Origin: Patescibacteria group bacterium
GTDB lineage: Bacteria > Patescibacteriota > Patescibacteriia > Patescibacteriales > UBA12465
NCBI GenBank assembly: GCA_041665845.1
Contig: JBAYIC010000006.1
Coordinates: 4,892 to 68,891 of the forward strand
Reading direction: 5' to 3'
DNA: 64,000 nucleotides
In this document: positions 23,716 through 32,684 of the stretch, in pieces
Layout: every line of letters starts with the position of its first letter
How positions within the stretch are numbered: the stretch's first letter is position 1
Program-made: the position numbers and the translations under genes
Notes under the pieces: generated by a model
Told to the model about the DNA's origin: nothing
Database searches by the model: none
The model's input: only the letters and a program-made list of their open reading frames with translations

Positions 23716-25629
23716 TTAGGTAATTATAATATTTTCACCTTCAGATAGACTTTGTTCTTTATTATTTTGTTCTGTATTATTAAAATTTACTGGACTAGAC
23801 TGATCATCTCGTTCATTATCTTCATCATCTTCATTATGTACAACTGGATGATTATTTACTTTCATAGTTCTTCCCTTAAAATCAACTGGAGCAATTTTAT
23901 TTAAATCACCTAGAGACAATACTTTTTCTGGCTCTGACTTAGGAAGTTCTTCAACTTCAATTAATTTTCTATTTTCCATTTCCTTCGCTTGTTTTCTTGC
24001 TTCTGTTTCTAGACGTTTTTCTTCTTTCTTTCTTGTTAAACAATCCTTACAATACACCGGACGAATTCCATCAGGAGCAAAAGGCGTTTTAGTATGATTA
24101 CCGCAATCAGCGCAAATTGCTTCATAACCCGGTTTTTCAGAAATTACCGCCGGAGTCGTCGTAACCTGAGGCCTTATTACCTGAGGCCTAACTACTTGCG
24201 GGCTTGATTTCATTACTTGATATTTTTGATCTTGATTTTGATTAAAGGTAGGTCGACTGATTATTGTAGATTGATTAGTTACTGCCGGGGATTGGCTAGG
24301 AACTCTAAGCGGAAATTTAGATTCTGGTTTAGGGCTAGGCTTATCATCTTCACCATAACTTTCATGCCAACGCATAATCTTTTCTTCAACGATTTCTCTC
24401 CCGGTTGCGTAATTTTCCCGTGAATAATTGATTACTTTCTCAGTATTATTAGTTCTCTCTTCCACCTTTAAAGGTGGAAGACCAATCGCTGAAAAAGGCG
24501 AAGAGGCAATCCCATCTATCATTAACTTCAAATACATCTCATACTTCGGTAAATTAACAATATCTTCTTCCGTAAATGTTGGAGTAAATTCTTTAACTAA
24601 TTCTTCAGCATCAGCCGCTCCCACTCGAAAAACAACTAAAGTTCCCACATTACCAAAAACCGCTGGCTTTACTTTCTCACTCAATTGTTCAATATATTGA
24701 TGAGCAAGAATTAAATTAAGGCGATATTTTCTTGCTTCCGATAAAATATTAGCGAAACTATCAGTCGAAAAGTTTTGAAATTCATCAATATAAAGATAAA
24801 AATCACGACGCATTTTTTCTGGAACATCAACTCGACTCATGGCCGCTAATTGAATCTTGGTAATCATCATCGCGCCTAGAAGAGCGGAATTATCCTCACC
24901 AATTCGACCCTTAGAAAGATTCATAATCAGAATCTTGCCATTATCCATAATATCACGGATATCAATCGCTGATTTTACTTGGCCAATAACATTTCTCATT
25001 AAAGAACTAGATAAAAATTGACCAACTTTATTTTGAATTGGAGAAACTGCTTCTGAAGCAAATTTATCAGCATAACTAGAAAATTCTTTTTCCCAAAAAG
25101 CTTTAACAACCGGATCTTTAATATTAGCAACTACTTTTTTACGATAACTTTTATCGGAAAGCATGCGGACAACGCCCAATAATGTTGAACCGGGAAAGTC
25201 CAAAATCGCTAAAACGGCATTTCTTAAAATATATTCCAAACGTGGCCCCCAAGAATCAGCCCATAGTTTTTGAAAAACCCCAATCAAGCCAGAAGCGACT
25301 AGATGGCGTAAATGCGGTTCAACCTGTTCAACAACATTAAAAGCAATCGGGAAATTAATATCAGAAGGATTAAAATAAACAACATCGTTAACACGATTAT
25401 CCGGAATATATTCGATGATCTTTTCTGCTAAATCGCCATGAGGATCAACTACCGCGACCCCATAACCAGCTTTAATATCATCGATAATCATGTTTTCCAA
25501 AACCGTAGACTTCCCCATACCAGTTTTCCCAATCAAATACATATGACGGCGGCGGTCGTCCGTTTTAATACCGAATTTTTTCAATTCGTTGCGATAATTT
25601 GTTTGAGCAAAAACTGCTATATTATCCAT
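23716..25629 (-). CDS. TraD/VirD4/TrwB-like P-loop ATPase with C-terminal CxxC-x17-CxxC zinc ribbon
   Basis: Walker A GKTGMGKST, DPHGD, Walker B YIDEFQNF, ARKYRLNLILAHQYIEQL. No N-terminal TM. C-terminal CADC-(17 aa)-CKDC. PQVVRPQVIRPQV tandem tripeptide-rich linker. Confidence 0.75.
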   Translation of the reverse strand: MDNIAVFAQTNYRNELKKFGIKTDDRRRHMYLIGKTGMGKSTVLENMIIDDIKAGYGVAVVDPHGDLAEKIIEYIPDNRVNDVVYFNPSDINFPIAFNVVEQVEPHLRHLVASGLIGVFQKLWADSWGPRLEYILRNAVLAILDFPGSTLLGVVRMLSDKSYRKKVVANIKDPVVKAFWEKEFSSYADKFASEAVSPIQNKVGQFLSSSLMRNVIGQVKSAIDIRDIMDNGKILIMNLSKGRIGEDNSALLGAMMITKIQLAAMSRVDVPEKMRRDFYLYIDEFQNFSTDSFANILSEARKYRLNLILAHQYIEQLSEKVKPAVFGNVGTLVVFRVGAADAEELVKEFTPTFTEEDIVNLPKYEMYLKLMIDGIASSPFSAIGLPPLKVEERTNNTEKVINYSRENYATGREIVEEKIMRWHESYGEDDKPSPKPESKFPLRVPSQSPAVTNQSTIISRPTFNQNQDQKYQVMKSSPQVVRPQVIRPQVTTTPAVISEKPGYEAICADCGNHTKTPFAPDGIRPVYCKDCLTRKKEEKRLETEARKQAKEMENRKLIEVEELPKSEPEKVLSLGDLNKIAPVDFKGRTMKVNNHPVVHNEDDEDNERDDQSSPVNFNNTEQNNKEQSLSEGENIIIT

Positions 25630-25843
25630 AAATCTTTAACAAATAATCAGTTATACTACGCCAAGAAATAAAGCCTAAGACGATAACCGAAAGAAGAATA
25701 ATAATTTTAAGGAAACTATAAGAAGACTGCCAAAAAAAATAATTTCTAACAAATTTAACTGATTTTAAAATCTCTTTATTAGTTGCTTCATTTAATTCTA
25801 GGTGTTTTACTATTTCGTTTAGTTTTTCTTCGCTGCTTTCCAT
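25622..25843 (-). CDS. small membrane protein
   Basis: 73 aa with one TM (IIILLSVIVLGFISW). Its stop overlaps the downstream ATPase start by 8 nt. Confidence 0.4.
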   Translation of the reverse strand: MESSEEKLNEIVKHLELNEATNKEILKSVKFVRNYFFWQSSYSFLKIIILLSVIVLGFISWRSITDYLLKIYG

Positions 25844-25857
25844 ATATATAATTTTAA

Positions 25858-26583
25858 TTAAACTCTTACTTCGCAGACTCCAGCAGTTTCACGACCAGAA
25901 ACGGCAAATTCTTTCATCTCCTTATCAGAATAAGCCTCTTTTCCGCGATAATTTGTATTCACCAAATCGGTATCTGATTTAAATTTCTGAAGATACCAAT
26001 TATTTGCCCCTTTAATTATTGTTCCCATCGTCTTGAAATCTTCCTTCACCAAAAGGCCGGGGACAACAGTCGTTCTGAATTCATGAGGGAGATCACTCTT
26101 GATTATCATTTTAACACTTTTTTTCAAATCATTACAGACAACCTTGGCGCTAACGGTATTTTCATATTTATCAAACGGCGCTTTTAAATCCATAGCGATA
26201 TAATCTATTAATTTACTATCAATCAATCCTTTAAGCATCTTGGGATTCGTACCATTGGTATCTAGCTTTACATCATAACCAATCTTTTTTATTTTACCAA
26301 TAAAAGAAGGCAGGTCGGGATGCAAAGTCGGCTCCCCACCGGTAATCACTACGCCGTCTAAACGGCCATATCTTTCCTTCAAAAAAAGAAAAAGGTCTTC
26401 AGTGGAAAGCGGAGAAAAACCTTTTTCTTTTTTATATTTTTCATCCTCTCCTTCACGGGACAGGACAAGCTTGGGGTTATAGCAAAAGTGGCATCGGAAG
26501 TTACAACCTTGAGTGAAGATAATGGCTGCTAGATGACCGGGGTAGTCTAAAATGGATAATTTCTCCAAACCACCGATAATCAT
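25858..26583 (-). CDS. nrdG: anaerobic ribonucleoside-triphosphate reductase activating protein (radical SAM)
   Basis: CNFRCHFCYNP (CxxxCxxC) and GGEPTL. Adjacent to nrdD. Confidence 0.9.
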   Translation of the reverse strand: MIIGGLEKLSILDYPGHLAAIIFTQGCNFRCHFCYNPKLVLSREGEDEKYKKEKGFSPLSTEDLFLFLKERYGRLDGVVITGGEPTLHPDLPSFIGKIKKIGYDVKLDTNGTNPKMLKGLIDSKLIDYIAMDLKAPFDKYENTVSAKVVCNDLKKSVKMIIKSDLPHEFRTTVVPGLLVKEDFKTMGTIIKGANNWYLQKFKSDTDLVNTNYRGKEAYSDKEMKEFAVSGRETAGVCEVRV

Positions 26584-26593
26584 AAGGCTATTA

Positions 26594-26734
26594 CTACTCT
26601 GCAGAGACCTTAAAAGTCTTGCGATCTTTATATTCAGAAGCTTTACCAGGATTATAATTTTTAACCGGGGTTAGCCAACCAACAACACGACTATAAACAA
26701 TGCATTCTTGTCTTTGAGTTTGTATTGGGCTCAT
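26594..26734 (-). CDS. stand-alone glycyl-radical segment of class III ribonucleotide reductase (46 aa, absent from the ORF track)
   Basis: Hand translation: MSPIQTQRQECIVYSRVVGWLTPVKNYNPGKASEYKDRKTFKVSAE*. YSRVVG(W/Y)..PV..(W/Y)N.GK..E...R is the C-terminal glycyl-radical signature normally fused to NrdD. Confidence 0.6.
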   Translation of the reverse strand: MSPIQTQRQECIVYSRVVGWLTPVKNYNPGKASEYKDRKTFKVSAE

Positions 26735-26840
26735 ATTTTTATGTTTACCATTATAACTTCATCTCGATTAAGATATCATCTAATGGTAATTATATTATAA
26801 ATTAAAATTTTATAAATTACAACTAAAAAAATTTGCGTTT

Positions 26841-28901
26841 TTACAGCTGATTTTGGTCAACTAATCGGATATCCTCAATAGTTTCTTTAAATCCTATTTC
26901 TTCATCGCATTTCGGACAAAACTTATGCTCACCCGATAAATAGCCATGCTTAGGACAAATTGAAAAAGTAGGCGTAATAGTAAAGTATGGTAAACGATAA
27001 TTTTCAACAATTTTTTTAACTAACTTTTTAGCGGCATCGCCACTTGGCATTCTTTCGCCCAAATATCCATGTAAAACCGTCCCACCAGTGTATTTTGTCT
27101 GTAAATCATCTTGCAAATCAAGGGCCGAAAAAATATCATCAGTATAATTAACGTGCAAATGGGTTGAATTGGTATAATAAGGATCGGCCTTAAATTTCTG
27201 AACCGCTTCGGTATTAGAACAAATTATTCCAGGATATACTTGCTGATCTTTCTTGGCAAAACGATAGGTACAACCTTCGCCAGGAGTCGCCTCTAAGTTG
27301 TATAGATTATTGGTTTCGTTTTGAAAATCCATTAATTTTTCTCTCATGTAGTCTAGAATCTCGCCAGCGAAAGTATGCCCTTCCGGAGTACTAATATCTT
27401 TACCCATTAAGTTTAAAGCCGCCTCATTCATTCCGTTGATACCAATTGTCGAAAAATGATTGCGCCAATAATCACCAAATCGCTCTTTCATACTCTCTAG
27501 ATAAAACATCGAGTATGGATATAGTCTATCATCAGTAAACTTTTCAATAATTTTTCTTTTAATTTCTAAACTATCACGAGCTATTTCCATTAAAGAAAAT
27601 AATCGTTGTTTAAATTCGTCCTTAGTCTTTGATAAATATCCCAAGCGAGCTAAGTTGATAGTTACAACTCCAAGCGACCCCGTCATCGGATTAGCACCGA
27701 ATAAACCGCCGCCACGTTTGCGAAGTTCTCGATTATCCAATCTAAGACGGCAACACATTGAACGCGCATCATCGCGATTCATATCGGAATTTACAAAGTT
27801 AGAAAAATAAGGAATACCATATTTAGCCGTCATTTCCCAAACCGGTTTTAAACTTTCTCTATTCCAATCGAAATCTTTATCAACATTATAAGTAGGAATT
27901 GGAAAACCAAAGACACGCCCCGTTGAATCACCAGCTAACATTACTTCAGCAAAGGCCTGATTAAACATATCCATCTCCGGCTGAAAATCCTTATATTTTT
28001 CCGGCATGAGTTTGCCCCCGATAATAGCATTCTCTTCGCCAATCATTGGAGACGGGGTAACGTCTAAGGTTACATTAGTAAACGGAGTTTGAAAGCCAAC
28101 TCGAGTCGGAACATTAACGTTAAACATGAATTCCTGTAAACCTTGTTTTACCTCTTCATAAGAAAGCTTATCGTAACGAATAAACGGCGCTAAGTAAGTA
28201 TCAAAATTAGCAAAAGCCTGAGCTCCAGCCGCCTCTCCTTGAAGCGTATAGAAAAAATTAATAATTTGGCCGAGTGCGCTACGAAAATGTTTGGGCGGAT
28301 AACTTTGAACTTTCTCGCTTACACCTCTAAATCCCTTGATAAGTAAATCTTTTAAATCCCAACCACAGCAATAAGGCGCGAGCAAACCAAGATCATGAAT
28401 ATGCATGTCGCCATTTATATGAGCATTTCTAATATTTTCCGGGTACATCTTATTAAGCCAGTACTTAGCAGAAATTGCTGAGGCAATATAGTTGTTTAAA
28501 CCTTGGACGGAAAAACTCATGTTACTATTTTCCTTCAAACGCCAATCTGACTTCCCTAAATAATCTTCCATCAATTTCTCATCGGCTGTAATATTAGAAA
28601 TATCACGCAATTGACGATGCTGATCGCGATATAAAATATAATTTTTAGCAGCTTTAATCTGATGGTTCTCCAATAATACCTCTTCAACTATATCTTGAAT
28701 TTCTTCAACAGCTGGGATACTATTCTTATGAAATTTACCATTAACTTTCATTACTACCTGATCGGCTAGTTTCTTAGCTAAATGCTTATCATCAACACCA
28801 GCGGCCATCGTTGCCTTATAAATCGCGCGCGCAATTTTTTCTTGGTCAAAATCGGCAACTTCACCCGATCTTTTTATAATTTTGCTTATAGTTTCTGACA
28901 T
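26841..28901 (-). CDS. nrdD: anaerobic ribonucleoside-triphosphate reductase large chain, lacking the glycyl-radical C-terminus
   Basis: N-terminal ATP-cone, then CCRLRLD, and a C-terminal zinc ribbon CPKHG...CPKC. The ORF stops 21 aa after the ribbon without an RVxGY motif. Confidence 0.9.
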   Translation of the reverse strand: MSETISKIIKRSGEVADFDQEKIARAIYKATMAAGVDDKHLAKKLADQVVMKVNGKFHKNSIPAVEEIQDIVEEVLLENHQIKAAKNYILYRDQHRQLRDISNITADEKLMEDYLGKSDWRLKENSNMSFSVQGLNNYIASAISAKYWLNKMYPENIRNAHINGDMHIHDLGLLAPYCCGWDLKDLLIKGFRGVSEKVQSYPPKHFRSALGQIINFFYTLQGEAAGAQAFANFDTYLAPFIRYDKLSYEEVKQGLQEFMFNVNVPTRVGFQTPFTNVTLDVTPSPMIGEENAIIGGKLMPEKYKDFQPEMDMFNQAFAEVMLAGDSTGRVFGFPIPTYNVDKDFDWNRESLKPVWEMTAKYGIPYFSNFVNSDMNRDDARSMCCRLRLDNRELRKRGGGLFGANPMTGSLGVVTINLARLGYLSKTKDEFKQRLFSLMEIARDSLEIKRKIIEKFTDDRLYPYSMFYLESMKERFGDYWRNHFSTIGINGMNEAALNLMGKDISTPEGHTFAGEILDYMREKLMDFQNETNNLYNLEATPGEGCTYRFAKKDQQVYPGIICSNTEAVQKFKADPYYTNSTHLHVNYTDDIFSALDLQDDLQTKYTGGTVLHGYLGERMPSGDAAKKLVKKIVENYRLPYFTITPTFSICPKHGYLSGEHKFCPKCDEEIGFKETIEDIRLVDQNQL

Positions 28902-28929
28902 AGGAATTGAGAATTGAAAATATGATTAA

Positions 28930-29388
28930 TTATTTTTTTTCTTTAATTAATTTATTAAGCTCCTTGCGAAACTCCTGCGCATCCTTAAAGGATTCATAAA
29001 CGGAAGCGTAACGGATATAAGCAACCGAATCTATTTTTTTCAAATTCTTCATTACTGCTTGGCCAACTTGTTTTGAGGTTATTTCAGTTTTTTTAAGACG
29101 TTGTAAATCTCTTTCAATTGAATGAATCAGTCGTTTAAATAAATCTTCGGTAATTGGTCTTTTTTCACAAGATTTTTTTAAACCACCAACCAATTTTTCT
29201 CGGCTATAAGCTTCACGACGACCATCCCTTTTTACTAATACTAAATCAAGGATTTCTATTTCTTCGTAAGTTGAAAAACGAAAAGAGCATTTTAGACATT
29301 CGCGACGACGACGAATTGATAAACCATCAGCCGCTACCCGAGAATCAACCACCTTGGTATCAGGATGGTAGCAAATTGGGCATTTCAT
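28930..29388 (-). CDS. nrdR: transcriptional repressor NrdR
   Basis: MKCPICYHPDTKVVDSR...CLKCSFRFSTYE zinc ribbon followed by an ATP-cone. Confidence 0.95.
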   Translation of the reverse strand: MKCPICYHPDTKVVDSRVAADGLSIRRRRECLKCSFRFSTYEEIEILDLVLVKRDGRREAYSREKLVGGLKKSCEKRPITEDLFKRLIHSIERDLQRLKKTEITSKQVGQAVMKNLKKIDSVAYIRYASVYESFKDAQEFRKELNKLIKEKK

Positions 29389-29416
29389 AAAGCGTGATTA
29401 TTAGGCTTTTCTTAAA

Positions 29417-29464
29417 AAGCTATATTTTGTGGGCTTTTTTATATACGACCACTAAATATTGTAT
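29417..29464. promoter_or_regulatory. two tandem NrdR boxes upstream of nrdR-nrdD
   Basis: Box at 29449-29464 (CCACTAAATATTGTAT) matches the acaCwAtATaTwGtgt consensus at 13/16. Box at 29417-29432 (reverse complement CCACAAAATATAGCTT) matches at 12/16. Centre-to-centre distance is 32 bp. Confidence 0.6.
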
Positions 29465-29565
29465 CTGCTGATATTTTAGCAAATTTTTAAAGTAGGGTCA
29501 AAGTCCGTCTGATTTAGCTAATTTTAATAAAATTATAAAATAAATCTAAAGTTATCCACACCTAA

Positions 29566-29602
29566 AACAAAAAGTCCTATCGGATTATTTATACCAATAG
29601 GA
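29566..29602 (-). terminator. intrinsic terminator downstream of copA
   Basis: TCCTATTGG-(loop)-CCGATAGGA stem followed by CTTTTTGTTTT on the minus strand. Confidence 0.5.
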
Positions 29603-29627
29603 TTTTTGCAAACAGAAACTTTAACTA

Positions 29628-32600
29628 TTAATCTTTAATTTCAAAGTCTGGACCAACAAAATGCATCATATCCAGGCTGGTCTTAGTTTCGGGCAAGATA
29701 CCGGCGATAATCACAGCATTACCAAACAAATCGTCAATCATATCATCAGCCTTATTAATTAATTTAGCGTCTATCATCATCTGGGCCTCTCTAGCGCCAA
29801 TATAAATAGGAAGATACTTTTTATCATCCAAAGTTATTATTGCAAAACTTTTAATATTATTTTTTACTTTCTCGGGAATATTAGTTTCATTAACAAAGTA
29901 AAAGCTCTTGATTATTTCTTTTTCAGCGACATATTTTACCTCAGCAACTCCGATTATATTAGCTAAAGTCGTCTTATTCATAAAATGATAATCATCAACC
30001 AGAGTTCCGGTGGGTTTAAGAACGCCAACGACTTTAACACTAGATAGACCAAAGAAATCTTTTAAACTACTTCCAGTCCCTTTGATAAGTTTTTCTTTTT
30101 TCATCATCATTGCTTCATTATAGCCAATCACCATTTCGTCATCGCCTAAAACTAGAGCTCCTTCGCTTGTTTTTAACATATTAGGCAAATTATCGACTCC
30201 CAAAAATAACTTAGGATTACCTTCGGCAAAATTAATCTTGGTTGGATTATCGGCGAGAAAATTATTTAAACTGGAAGCCTTTTCAATTGAAACCAAAAGG
30301 GCCATCCCCTTATTTTCCATATTTGAGCTCAGCTTGGCAAATTGGAAAAACCCAAACGTGAAAACAATGACCATTATAAACGGCGCCAATAGCGAAAGAT
30401 AATTTCTTTTATTAGGCTTAAAGTAACGCAAGAGTAAAGAATTTCCGACTACTGAAATTGAACTAAAAGCCATCGCTAATCCTGCTAATTCTGGTTTTAA
30501 GACTAGCCCAAGGGATATAAAAATGCGAGCAGCAATCGGAATCCCAATAACATTATAGAATAGAGCGAAGAACATATTTTGCTTAATCTTTCCCATTGTT
30601 TCCCGAGAAAGTTGGAAAGCGGTTACCACATCATTTAAATCATTCTTCATAATCACAATCCCTCCAGCATCCATCGCAACGTCCGTTCCAGAACCCATGG
30701 CAATGCCCAAATCGGCCTGTGCTAAAGCGGGAGCATCGTTAATGCCATCACCAACCATCGCTACCTTATGTCCGCTCTCTTGAAGCTTTTTAACCTCGTT
30801 GGCCTTATCCTCAGGTAGAACCTCAGCTAAAATATTCTCAATCCCAACTTGAGCAGCAATGGCTCTAGCTGTGCGCTCGTTATCTCCCGTTATCATATAA
30901 ACTGCAATACCCAACTTCTTTAACTTGGCTACTGCTTCCGCAGAAGTTGATTTAACAGTATCGGCAACGGCAATTGCACCTAATATTTGCTCTTTGGTTG
31001 CTAATATCATGGCGGTTTTACCCTGTTCTTCCAATTTATTGAGTTGACCATTAATTTTATCAATTGAATGTCCAAGAATTTCTGTCATTAACCGCCGATT
31101 ACCAAAATAATATTCAATCCCGTTAATTATTCCTTTAACTCCTTGACCAGGGATAGCGTTAAAGCCTTTGACTTCTTCAAGCGTAACTGATTCTTCGCTA
31201 GCATGTGAATAAATTGCTTCAGCAAGAGGATGCTCAGATAATTTTTCTAAGTTAGCCGAAAGAGATAATATTTTATCTTCATCAATATTTTCAAAAGTAA
31301 GAATATCTGTTACTTCCGGTTTACCCTTAGTCAAAGTCCCCGTCTTATCAAAAACAATGGTATTAATATGACAAGCCGCTTCTAACGGTTCTCCACCTTT
31401 AACTAATACTCCATACTCTGCTCCCTTACCGGTTCCAACCATCAAAGCAGTCGGGGTAGCTAAGCCTAAAGCACAAGGACAAGCAATAACTATAACAGCA
31501 GTAAAGGCCATCAAGGCAAAAGAAAGAGTCGCGCCCAAAAAGAAATACCAAACTAAAAAGGTAATAATTGCTAAACCAATTACGGTTGGAACGAAAATAG
31601 CGGATATTCTATCAGCAAAACCTTGAATCGGCGCTTTAGAACCTTGAGCATCTTCAATTAAACGAATAATTTGAGCGAGAGCGGTTTCACTCCCAATTCT
31701 AGTCGCTTCAAATTCAAAACTTCCAGTTTTATTGATTGTACTTCCAATAACCATATCGCCGACATTTTTTTCTACCGGTAAACTTTCGCCTGTAATCATT
31801 GCTTCATCAACCGCGGATGTTCCTTTTACAATCTTGCCGTCAACCGGAATTTTTTCACCCGGACGAACTAAAATAATATCACCATGTGTAACCTCATCAA
31901 TGGCAATGTCTAAAGTTTTACCACTACGAATAACCCGCGCCGTTTTGGCTTGCAAACCCATTAATTTTTTAATCGCATCGCCGGTTTTACCTTTAGTTTT
32001 AATTTCCAGCCATTTTCCTAAGACAACAAAAGTTATCAAGTAAGCCGCAGTTTCAAAATAAAGTTCCGGAATTTTTCCGCCTAAGCCAATTACTGACTTA
32101 GTAGAAATAAAATAAGTTATAAAATTAACTAAACTATATATAAAAGCGGTTGAAGTCCCAATCGCGATTAAGCTATCCATATTAAAAGTCCGCATTTTCA
32201 AACTAGACCACATGCCTTTGTAAAAACCCCAACCGACCCAAAACTGAATTGGAATAGTAAGTAAAAGAGAAACAATGCCAACAAATGGTAGAACCGCCGC
32301 CTTTCCAGGGATGGCAAAAAAATCAAGCAACATGAAATACAGCATCGGTAAGCTAAGCACAAAGCTAAACCAAAATTTATGAGCATAATTTTTAGTTTCT
32401 TTTTCGCGCTTATGTTTTTCATGATCAGCATCTTTAGCATCAATAATTTCTGCTTTATAGCCGGCTTTTGCTACTGCCACAATCGCCGCCTTAATATCAG
32501 TTTTCCCCGGCTCAAATTGAATCAACGCTTTCTCGGCCGCAAAATTAACACTTGCTTGTTTTATGCCCGGCGTTTTATTTAAAGTTTTCTCGATTAAATT

Positions 32601-32684
32601 AGCACAGGAAGCACAATGCATCCCCGAAAGAGAAAGACTAACTCTGATCGAAGAATCCAAATCGATATTTTTAGTATTTTCCAT
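29628..32684 (-). CDS. copA: copper-translocating P1B-type ATPase with an extra 259-aa C-terminal TM plus extracytoplasmic domain
   Basis: [39 protein letters not shown] and MAFSS metal-site motifs. The canonical end (..[10 protein letters not shown]) is followed by one more TM and a ~230-aa domain. Confidence 0.95.

Follow-up and report, generated by a model that had tools for sequence, protein, structure and literature searches.

Our findings indicate that the anaerobic (class III) ribonucleotide reductase encoded in a 64,000-nucleotide stretch of DNA from a Patescibacteria group bacterium (contig JBAYIC010000006.1 of assembly GCA_041665845.1; hereafter the window, whose positions serve as coordinates throughout) is very probably a functional, obligate two-subunit enzyme that arose by an old gene fission and receives its glycyl-radical domain in trans. 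The nrd cluster lies on the minus strand in the order nrdR, nrdD large subunit, spacer, 46-codon open reading frame (ORF) and nrdG. The large subunit (26841..28901) is a chain of 686 residues that closes with a TAA codon at 26843-26841, 21 residues (DEEIGFKETIEDIRLVDQNQL) after its CPKC motif; every feature listed in the original prediction, which was made from the letters of the sequence, is found at the positions given there. A spacer of 106 nucleotides follows (26735..26840), which has a GC content of 0.17, where the window as a whole has 0.35, and stop codons in all three frames. Beyond it lies the small ORF (26594..26734), which is in a different frame from nrdD, encodes MSPIQTQRQECIVYSRVVGWLTPVKNYNPGKASEYKDRKTFKVSAE and presents the putative radical-bearing residue, Gly19, within the motif RVVGW; this ORF was missing from the program-made ORF list supplied for the original prediction. 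The nrdG gene (25858..26583), whose ATG stands 10 nucleotides past the small-ORF stop codon, encodes a radical S-adenosylmethionine (SAM) activase that matches Pfam Radical_SAM and scores 202 bits against the NCBIfam model TIGR02495 (NrdG2), for which the cutoff is 131, and this marks it as the cognate activase.

The two ORFs correspond to complementary halves of a single NrdD. Residues 124-667 of the large ORF cover positions 1-529 of the 562 in the Pfam NRDD profile (PF13597; E = 9e-183), and residues 8-41 of the small ORF cover positions 530-562 with a score above the gathering threshold (E = 6.7e-7). The NCBIfam model NF006126, with 684 positions, is divided likewise, the large ORF accounting for 3-652 (1037 bits, cutoff 548) and the small ORF for 649-683. 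In a search of solved structures, for which both products were joined as one query, the PDB matches of the NrdD barrel include 9d3x, 8p23, 4coi, 4u3e and 1h78; the large chain aligns to Thermotoga maritima NrdD (4coi) as far as CPVCGK at residue 610, and the small peptide aligns to EYMRIVGYLVPV, residues 615-641 of the same protein. Since these alignments end at 610 and resume at 615, only about four residues lie between the zinc ribbon and the Gly strand of the fused enzyme, and this short stretch corresponds in the window to a tail ending at a stop codon, followed by a spacer and the N-terminus of a second chain. Alignment to full-length NrdD proteins was the check proposed with the original prediction, and the match of the small ORF to the NrdD C-terminus in Pfam, NCBIfam and 4coi bears it out. 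The small ORF alone, too short a query for such a comparison, matched no PDB sequence, YfiD included, and the peptide has no curated family of its own in Pfam, NCBIfam or PHROGs.

The large subunit comprises an ATP-cone, the catalytic barrel, a zinc ribbon (CPKH..CPKC) and the 21-residue tail, with no glycyl-radical domain. Its finger loop reads SMCCRLRLD, with MCCR at residue 382, in keeping with the cysteine motif MGCR or MCCR defined for this loop (PMC9669993), and its zinc ribbon, CPKHGYLSGEHKFCPKC, aligns with the CEDGH..CPVC region of 4coi. The glycyl-radical motif RVxG[YFW] is absent from all 686 residues, as had been claimed, and is found on the 46-residue ORF as RVVGW, from which it would be supplied in trans. 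The large protein is identical to P0269, which NCBI lists as ribonucleoside triphosphate reductase (Patescibacteria group bacterium). Among its 120 best homologues identity is 83-100% and length is 673-703 residues, except for three of 1004-1040 residues that are probably intein-bearing. By these measures the large subunit is evidently intact. The canonical single-chain NrdD/NrdG systems of the NF006126 type (Coprothermobacter proteolyticus, T. maritima 4coi/4u3e and phage T4 1h7a) share the same domains, the same motifs and an adjacent activase; they differ from the window in having a linker of 2-8 residues between CPxC and CEVYSRVVGY at the point where, in the window, the chain is interrupted by a stop codon and a spacer and begins anew at a second start codon. 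Relative to the fused enzymes the large chain has gained DEEIGY and a variable tail, the peptide has gained MSPIQTQRQ, and Trp replaces Tyr after the radical Gly. The nearest fused enzymes, from Marinimicrobia, Coprothermobacter and several archaea, are 694-713 residues long, are 59-62% identical to the window large subunit and read CPKCGSHCEVYSRIVGY across the split point.

A split of this kind could also reflect an nrdD that was recently broken, by decay or by an assembly or sequencing lesion, with the 46-codon ORF as a leftover, and one window alone cannot exclude such decay. A search of related genomes for the same arrangement, however, found it throughout. The 46-residue query, run against 5.8 billion proteins, returned 136 clusters, and the 120 of these for which details were listed are all stand-alone proteins of 41-65 residues, 68-96% identical to the query. 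In a collection holding one genome per species, relatives of the small ORF turned up in 301 stretches; the best 80 of these, which were fetched, come mostly from Falkowbacteria or Patescibacteria metagenome-assembled genomes and include the complete chromosome CP066698.1. A stop codon stands shortly before the conserved M-S/A-P start in 80/80 of the fetched loci. Where upstream context was available (77 loci, namely 76 relatives and the window), a shortened nrdD, typically of about 685-710 residues and with 9-30 residues beyond CPKC, precedes the small ORF in every case (77/77), and nrdG follows 2-97 nucleotides downstream in 76/76 related loci. The spacers of these 77 loci measure 18-184 nucleotides, occur in all three relative frames and show no sequence conservation. 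An alignment of 27 small-ORF homologues has M1, R8, C11, YSRVV, W20 and several later residues invariant, and the radical G19 is kept in at least 90% of the sequences. Across 2926 pairs from the 77 loci the small ORF has a mean nonsynonymous divergence (pN) of 0.071 and a mean synonymous divergence (pS) of 0.776, a ratio of 0.09 with synonymous sites near saturation; this ratio shows strong purifying selection, and we consider the small ORF to be translated and constrained.

Recurrence in independent assemblies, in these 77 genome loci and in about 58 metagenome loci described below, together with selection on the peptide, its invariant start Met and the close identity among large subunits, rules out decay or artefact as the origin of the split, and we leave that explanation a very slim chance. 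The one observation that lends it any colour is a cluster from three sources (P0069) in which the motif reads RVVWW, with Trp at the position of the radical Gly, and this may mean that some copies are defective or wrongly sequenced. At the position following the radical Gly (codon 20, 26675-26677), Trp is found throughout the window's clade, and Tyr in a sister split family and in the fused enzymes that were inspected.

This sister family, which has the canonical G-Y motif (MSPIETKR.CEVYSRVTGY), emerged from a full HMMER scan of 1.84 billion representatives that yielded 979 proteins at E up to 0.001, of which the best 150 are nearly all 40-130 residues long. A metagenome scan with the sister family returned at least 552 relatives; 80 were fetched, and the roughly 58 with enough upstream context show a truncated nrdD, the small ORF and then nrdG wherever the contig reaches that far. 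Fused nrdD was seen in only three of the fetched loci. Spacers in this family range from -4 to 330 nucleotides, the three relative frames occur 23, 21 and 14 times, and GGAGG stands ahead of the small-ORF ATG in several loci. The split is thus conserved in this bacterium and in hundreds of relatives, and on this comparative evidence it is not a lesion.

These spacers also bear on the alternative of an intervening sequence, for which the original prediction had allowed. If such a sequence were spliced out as a self-splicing intron, or passed over through translational bypassing or a programmed frameshift, a single fused NrdD would result after all. Precedent exists, in that a group I intron sits in T4 nrdD and interruptions are frequent among phage nrd genes (PMC3653736), and the spacer of the window does contain a stable hairpin. 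Against this, the region 25500-29800 has no Rfam match to an intron, riboswitch or any other family at E up to 5, and the spacer holds no mobile element, ORF or RNA family. The spread of spacer lengths from -4 to 330 nucleotides in all three frames, with unrelated sequences and some spacers of only 18 nucleotides, excludes an intron or a split intein, and likewise a frameshift or bypassing. The stop codon and the start Met are conserved, as is a Shine-Dalgarno sequence in the sister family, and the extra tail and N-terminus (about 21 and 9 residues) are under coding constraint and not removed. We therefore regard an intervening sequence as highly improbable. The interrupted phage genes themselves (T4 nrdD with its group I intron, nrdA-a/nrdA-b of Aeh1 and the fragmented nrdD of phiAS4, the last two being Aeromonas phages; PMC3653736) resemble the window in being spread over more than one ORF, but they reflect introns, inteins, homing-endonuclease insertions or recent strain-specific fragmentation, whereas the split in the window is old, clade-wide and under selection, with no Rfam match and no intein domain flanking the break.

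Joining of the two products after translation, by a split intein or another form of ligation, would likewise restore a single chain, and inteins do occur in the NrdD proteins of this group: a LAGLIDADG intein in a viral contig (L131), the intein splicing domain PF14890 in the precomputed Pfam list of P0371, and nrdD ORFs of 1011-1310 residues in L022, L030, L040 and L080, which exceed the usual length of split-type large subunits by 300-600 residues. P0311 and P0367 are overlong in the same way as P0371, and such overlong large subunits probably carry intein insertions. At the break itself, however, the zinc ribbon is followed by only about 21 residues (9-13 in some tails), and the peptide has only about 9 ahead of its homologous part; split-intein halves need more than this. 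No intein family in Pfam matches either end, and the tails vary in sequence beyond DEEIGY. The size of the extra residues and the lack of an intein domain at the break together rule out a split intein, and ligation of any kind retains, in our judgment, a vanishingly small probability. In all split-type large subunits DEEIGY comes directly after CPKC, and the remainder of the tail is variable, at 9-65 residues. MAFFT places the Gly strand of fused enzymes (xxCEVYSR…) on the tail of the window (26841-26903), and the tail may, as a weak idea, be a relic of an ancestral Gly strand, which would point to duplication and degeneration as the origin of the split.

A further possibility is that the peptide is a true spare part for some other full-length NrdD, elsewhere in the genome or in a host, and that the local truncated nrdD is inactive or has another role. 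What favors this view is the occurrence on viral contigs of orphan NrdD-type glycyl-radical ORFs without an NrdD barrel within 5 kb, which makes trans-acting use of such peptides plausible. In the bacterial loci, on the other hand, the peptide gene always lies between the truncated nrdD and nrdG, the truncated nrdD retains all catalytic motifs and is highly conserved, and every sequence found with Trp after the radical Gly is stand-alone, with no fused NrdD of this type among them. We consider this explanation unlikely, if somewhat less remote than a simple lesion, and favor the obligate two-subunit enzyme.

The viral ORFs themselves are numerous. Many IMG/VR contigs (L083-L130 and others) encode stand-alone NrdD-type glycyl-radical proteins, either of 45-55 residues or of 90-130 residues with an N-domain of their own that resembles a zinc ribbon (CxDC..KCxxC; alignment A2), as at L118:4853-5017, L087:4986-5261 and L094:4956-5345. 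The ORF on L118 lies between Mu-F-like and Gp46 scaffold head genes, and that on L094 lies amid sugar-modifying enzymes. Within about 5 kb of these ORFs a phmmer search picked up neither an NrdD barrel nor an NrdG2, though a T4-type NrdG could escape such a search. These orphans may be phage spare parts for the NrdD of the host. A different arrangement is seen on the viral contig L131 (3226-6425), adjoining a family A DNA polymerase, where a 49-residue glycyl-radical ORF lies directly upstream, in permuted order, of a 1015-residue NrdD that contains the LAGLIDADG intein and ends at position 528 of Pfam NRDD. The breakpoint is thus as in the window, and the locus appears to be an independent arrangement with that same breakpoint. 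Among cultured-phage records there were four matches and no annotated stand-alone glycyl-radical example; three of the matches fall under an annotated NrdD gene, one of which on inspection proved to be a full-length large-subunit coding sequence of 585 residues, and the fourth is in an unannotated record.

The closest functional parallels are GrcA/YfiD from Escherichia coli and phage T4's Y06I, which are likewise small stand-alone glycyl-radical-loop proteins and serve as spare parts for pyruvate formate-lyase, in which a 14-kDa protein restores a 170-kDa enzyme (PMC8683613). As in those systems, the loop is presumably activated by the cognate radical-SAM activase and would work when docked in the large catalytic subunit. 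The likeness to GrcA/YfiD that the original prediction had drawn holds in this functional sense, and fails in two others. The peptide is homologous to the C-terminus of NrdD and not to pyruvate formate-lyase, since it matches NrdD models only in Pfam and NCBIfam, and its 46 residues lack the long disordered N-terminal half of GrcA/YfiD (about 127 residues). Nor is it a spare part for the adjoining NrdD: because that enzyme has no glycyl-radical domain of its own that could be replaced, the peptide would be an obligate subunit. Another precedent is the split class II reductase NrdJa/NrdJb of Pseudomonas aeruginosa and the Thermus phage phiYS40, in which two consecutive ORFs, as in the window, together make one catalytic subunit across a clade (PMC9669993, PMC3653736). 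The two systems differ in class and in breakpoint, in that NrdJb has IscU-like and zinc-finger redox domains, whereas the piece split off in the window bears the radical.

The spacer of the window also carries signals of its own. A promoter-like site is formed by TTGTAA (26822-26817) and TATAAT (26799-26794) at a distance of 17 nucleotides (26794..26822), and downstream of it a leader hairpin (26745..26789) is built from the 9-base inverted repeat already noticed in the original prediction, with arms TTACCATTA at 26789-26781 and TAATGGTAA at 26753-26745. The hairpin begins at about the position where transcription from the -10 box would be expected to start, and between it and the ATG lies an unpaired stretch rich in A; the block TTGTAATTTATAAAATTTTAATTTATAAT of this spacer is conserved in the closest loci. 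Among the 77 loci of the window's clade, TATAAT occurs on the sense strand of 61 spacers, compared with 20.8 +/- 3.8 in shuffled sequences (maximum 34) and 14 on the reverse strand, and its density is 13.9 per kb, against 2.7 per kb on one strand and 1.7 on the other in the remaining non-ORF DNA of the same loci. A -35-like hexamer stands at 16-18 nucleotides in 39 of the 61 spacers with TATAAT. The distance from the -10 box to the ATG falls into two classes, of 9-28 or 44-79 nucleotides, and the long-leader class has a hairpin of 35-50 nucleotides at the same place, its structure kept while the sequences are unrelated. Compared with shuffled sequences, the 37 distinct long leaders have a mean stability z of -3.25, and 32 of them fall below -2. 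From these signals we infer an internal promoter and a 5'-terminal stem-loop in the spacers of the window's clade, and the TATAAT enrichment and the conserved leader hairpin suggest that transcription of the peptide and activase genes is separate from that of nrdD. Stem-loops at the 5' end commonly stabilise bacterial mRNAs.

The arrangement suggests a mechanism in which the 686-residue chain would supply the ATP-cone, the barrel with its thiyl-radical finger loop (MCCR) and the zinc ribbon, and the separately translated peptide of 46 residues would supply the glycyl-radical domain. With the help of S-adenosylmethionine, NrdG would remove a hydrogen atom from the peptide's Gly19. The peptide would dock non-covalently in the barrel at the site occupied by the C-terminal domain in fused enzymes, and transfer of the radical from the peptide to the finger-loop cysteine would then start nucleotide reduction. 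A free peptide would fit this activation well, because the Gly domain of a fused enzyme has to leave the barrel, by flipping out, before it can meet NrdG (PMC12662201). For the window's clade, the spacer's own putative promoter and 5' stem-loop would allow peptide and activase to be made independently of nrdR-nrdD, an arrangement that recalls the expression of YfiD and the pyruvate formate-lyase activating enzyme independently of need (PMC8683613). A possible benefit of the split would be cheap repair. Oxygen cleaves the backbone of glycyl-radical enzymes at the radical site, so that only a peptide of 5 kDa would need replacing in place of an enzyme of 80 kDa. A promoter of their own would keep both peptide and activase at hand for this purpose.

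Several points weigh against the obligate two-subunit enzyme, or against parts of it. Support for it comes from comparative genomics throughout, and the idea of cheap repair is speculative, drawn from the analogy with YfiD. The TATAAT counts come from phylogenetically related loci and are not independent events. The sister family shows no enrichment of TATAAT, which is present in 9 of 47 spacers where 11.5 would be expected; the internal promoter, then, does not accompany the split universally. In the window no Shine-Dalgarno sequence precedes the small ORF, and none precedes nrdD or nrdG. Modeling with AlphaFold2 gave a predicted local distance difference test (pLDDT) score of 37.5 for the concatenated products without an alignment, and for an artificial fusion with a 61-row alignment it gave a mean of 74 over the barrel and values below 50 for residues 670-717, the latter because MAFFT had aligned the Gly domains of fused enzymes to the tail of the window; the models thus speak neither for nor against docking of the peptide. 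We nevertheless consider the two-piece enzyme with an autonomous glycyl-radical subunit, which the original prediction had put forward as one reading, to be well supported by the recurrent breakpoint, the selection on the peptide, its invariant start and the constant proximity of nrdG.

To our knowledge, every characterised class III reductase carries the glycyl radical and the active site on one chain. In the literature searched we found no description of a split NrdD or of an autonomous radical peptide of the NrdD type, though coverage was incomplete and an earlier description is possible. According to a review of June 2026, spare-part proteins are known only for formate lyases among glycyl-radical enzymes (PMC13450708). 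If the two-subunit enzyme is confirmed, a glycyl-radical domain would work in trans in ribonucleotide reductases as well, as is so far known only for pyruvate formate-lyase and YfiD (PMC13450708, PMC8683613). The 46-residue peptide would also be a natural substrate of minimal size on which to study how the activase gains access to a glycine buried in the barrel, the 'flip-out' step (PMC12662201). The split suggests a cheap form of oxygen tolerance for small-genome Patescibacteria in fluctuating groundwater, and it may offer a template for designing spare parts of other oxygen-sensitive radical enzymes. For annotation, it means that a truncated nrdD of this kind should not be taken for a pseudogene and that the tiny ORF beside it is often missed. 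More tentatively, NrdD-type glycyl-radical peptides might be a general, exchangeable 'radical cartridge', with the 46-residue peptide of Patescibacteria, supplied along with the activase from its own promoter, being loaded into an NrdD that lacks the domain and swapped after oxygen damage, and with the phage orphans acting as spare parts that restore or boost anaerobic deoxynucleotide synthesis in the host. We are inclined to doubt this idea; if it were true, repair of the GrcA kind would no longer be confined to formate lyases and would include ribonucleotide reductases.

Cysteines recur at the ends of both chains among the relatives. The tails of many large subunits end in CxxC or CC (…ERCSTC, …SCCES), and many peptides have Cys-rich ends (KVCCE, EDCNC, QFC, GGGCGSCGCDK, PCPTC), examples of such tails or peptides being found in L031, L044, L063, L072, L046 and L077; the peptide of the window ends in KVSAE, without Cys. 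These ends could provide an additional metal or redox site between the two chains; alternatively, they could act as a tail facing thioredoxin, like that of class I and II enzymes. One subclade has a conserved GC-rich element of about 60 nucleotides between the small-ORF stop codon and the nrdG start, for example GAGGAGCGCGGGGACAGGGCCGTTGTTTAATCCCGGCTACTCCCTC, found at L031:4142-4216 and in L044, L047, L048, L051, L052, L055, L056, L058, L061, L065, L066 and L070; L038 also has the element and is left out of its alignment (A3). The consensus folds into a stem in which 6 of 11 pairs show compensatory changes, with invariant GGG/CCC and GC/GC pairs, and no Rfam family matches it at the gathering threshold or at E up to 10. 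The element may control nrdG as a leader or riboswitch-like motif of a kind not yet described; nothing like it is present upstream of nrdG in the window.

The first gene of the cluster, nrdR (28930..29388), encodes the transcriptional repressor of nrd genes, with Pfam matches to Zn_ribbon_NrdR (E = 5.6e-21) and the ATP-cone (E = 9.8e-18). Upstream of it, at 29501-29473, stands a promoter-like TTGACC-17-TAAAAT with a TG extension, and just downstream of this site is an NrdR-box-like ATACAATATTTAGTGG (29464-29449), which as a lone pattern match is not above chance. A second such stretch, CACAAAATATAGCT, lies about 33 bp beyond ATACAATATTTAGTGG in the region 29415-29501. These sites suggest that nrdR-nrdD may be autoregulated; the spacer between nrdD and the small ORF contains no NrdR box, the sole match in the window being the one upstream of nrdR. 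The cluster is flanked on one side (29628-32684) by a gene for a heavy-metal P-type ATPase of 1018 residues, of which about 280 extra C-terminal residues have no Pfam match, and on the other (23716-25629) by one for a 637-residue ATPase resembling type IV coupling proteins (TrwB/TraG-D), with a treble-clef zinc finger at its C-terminus.

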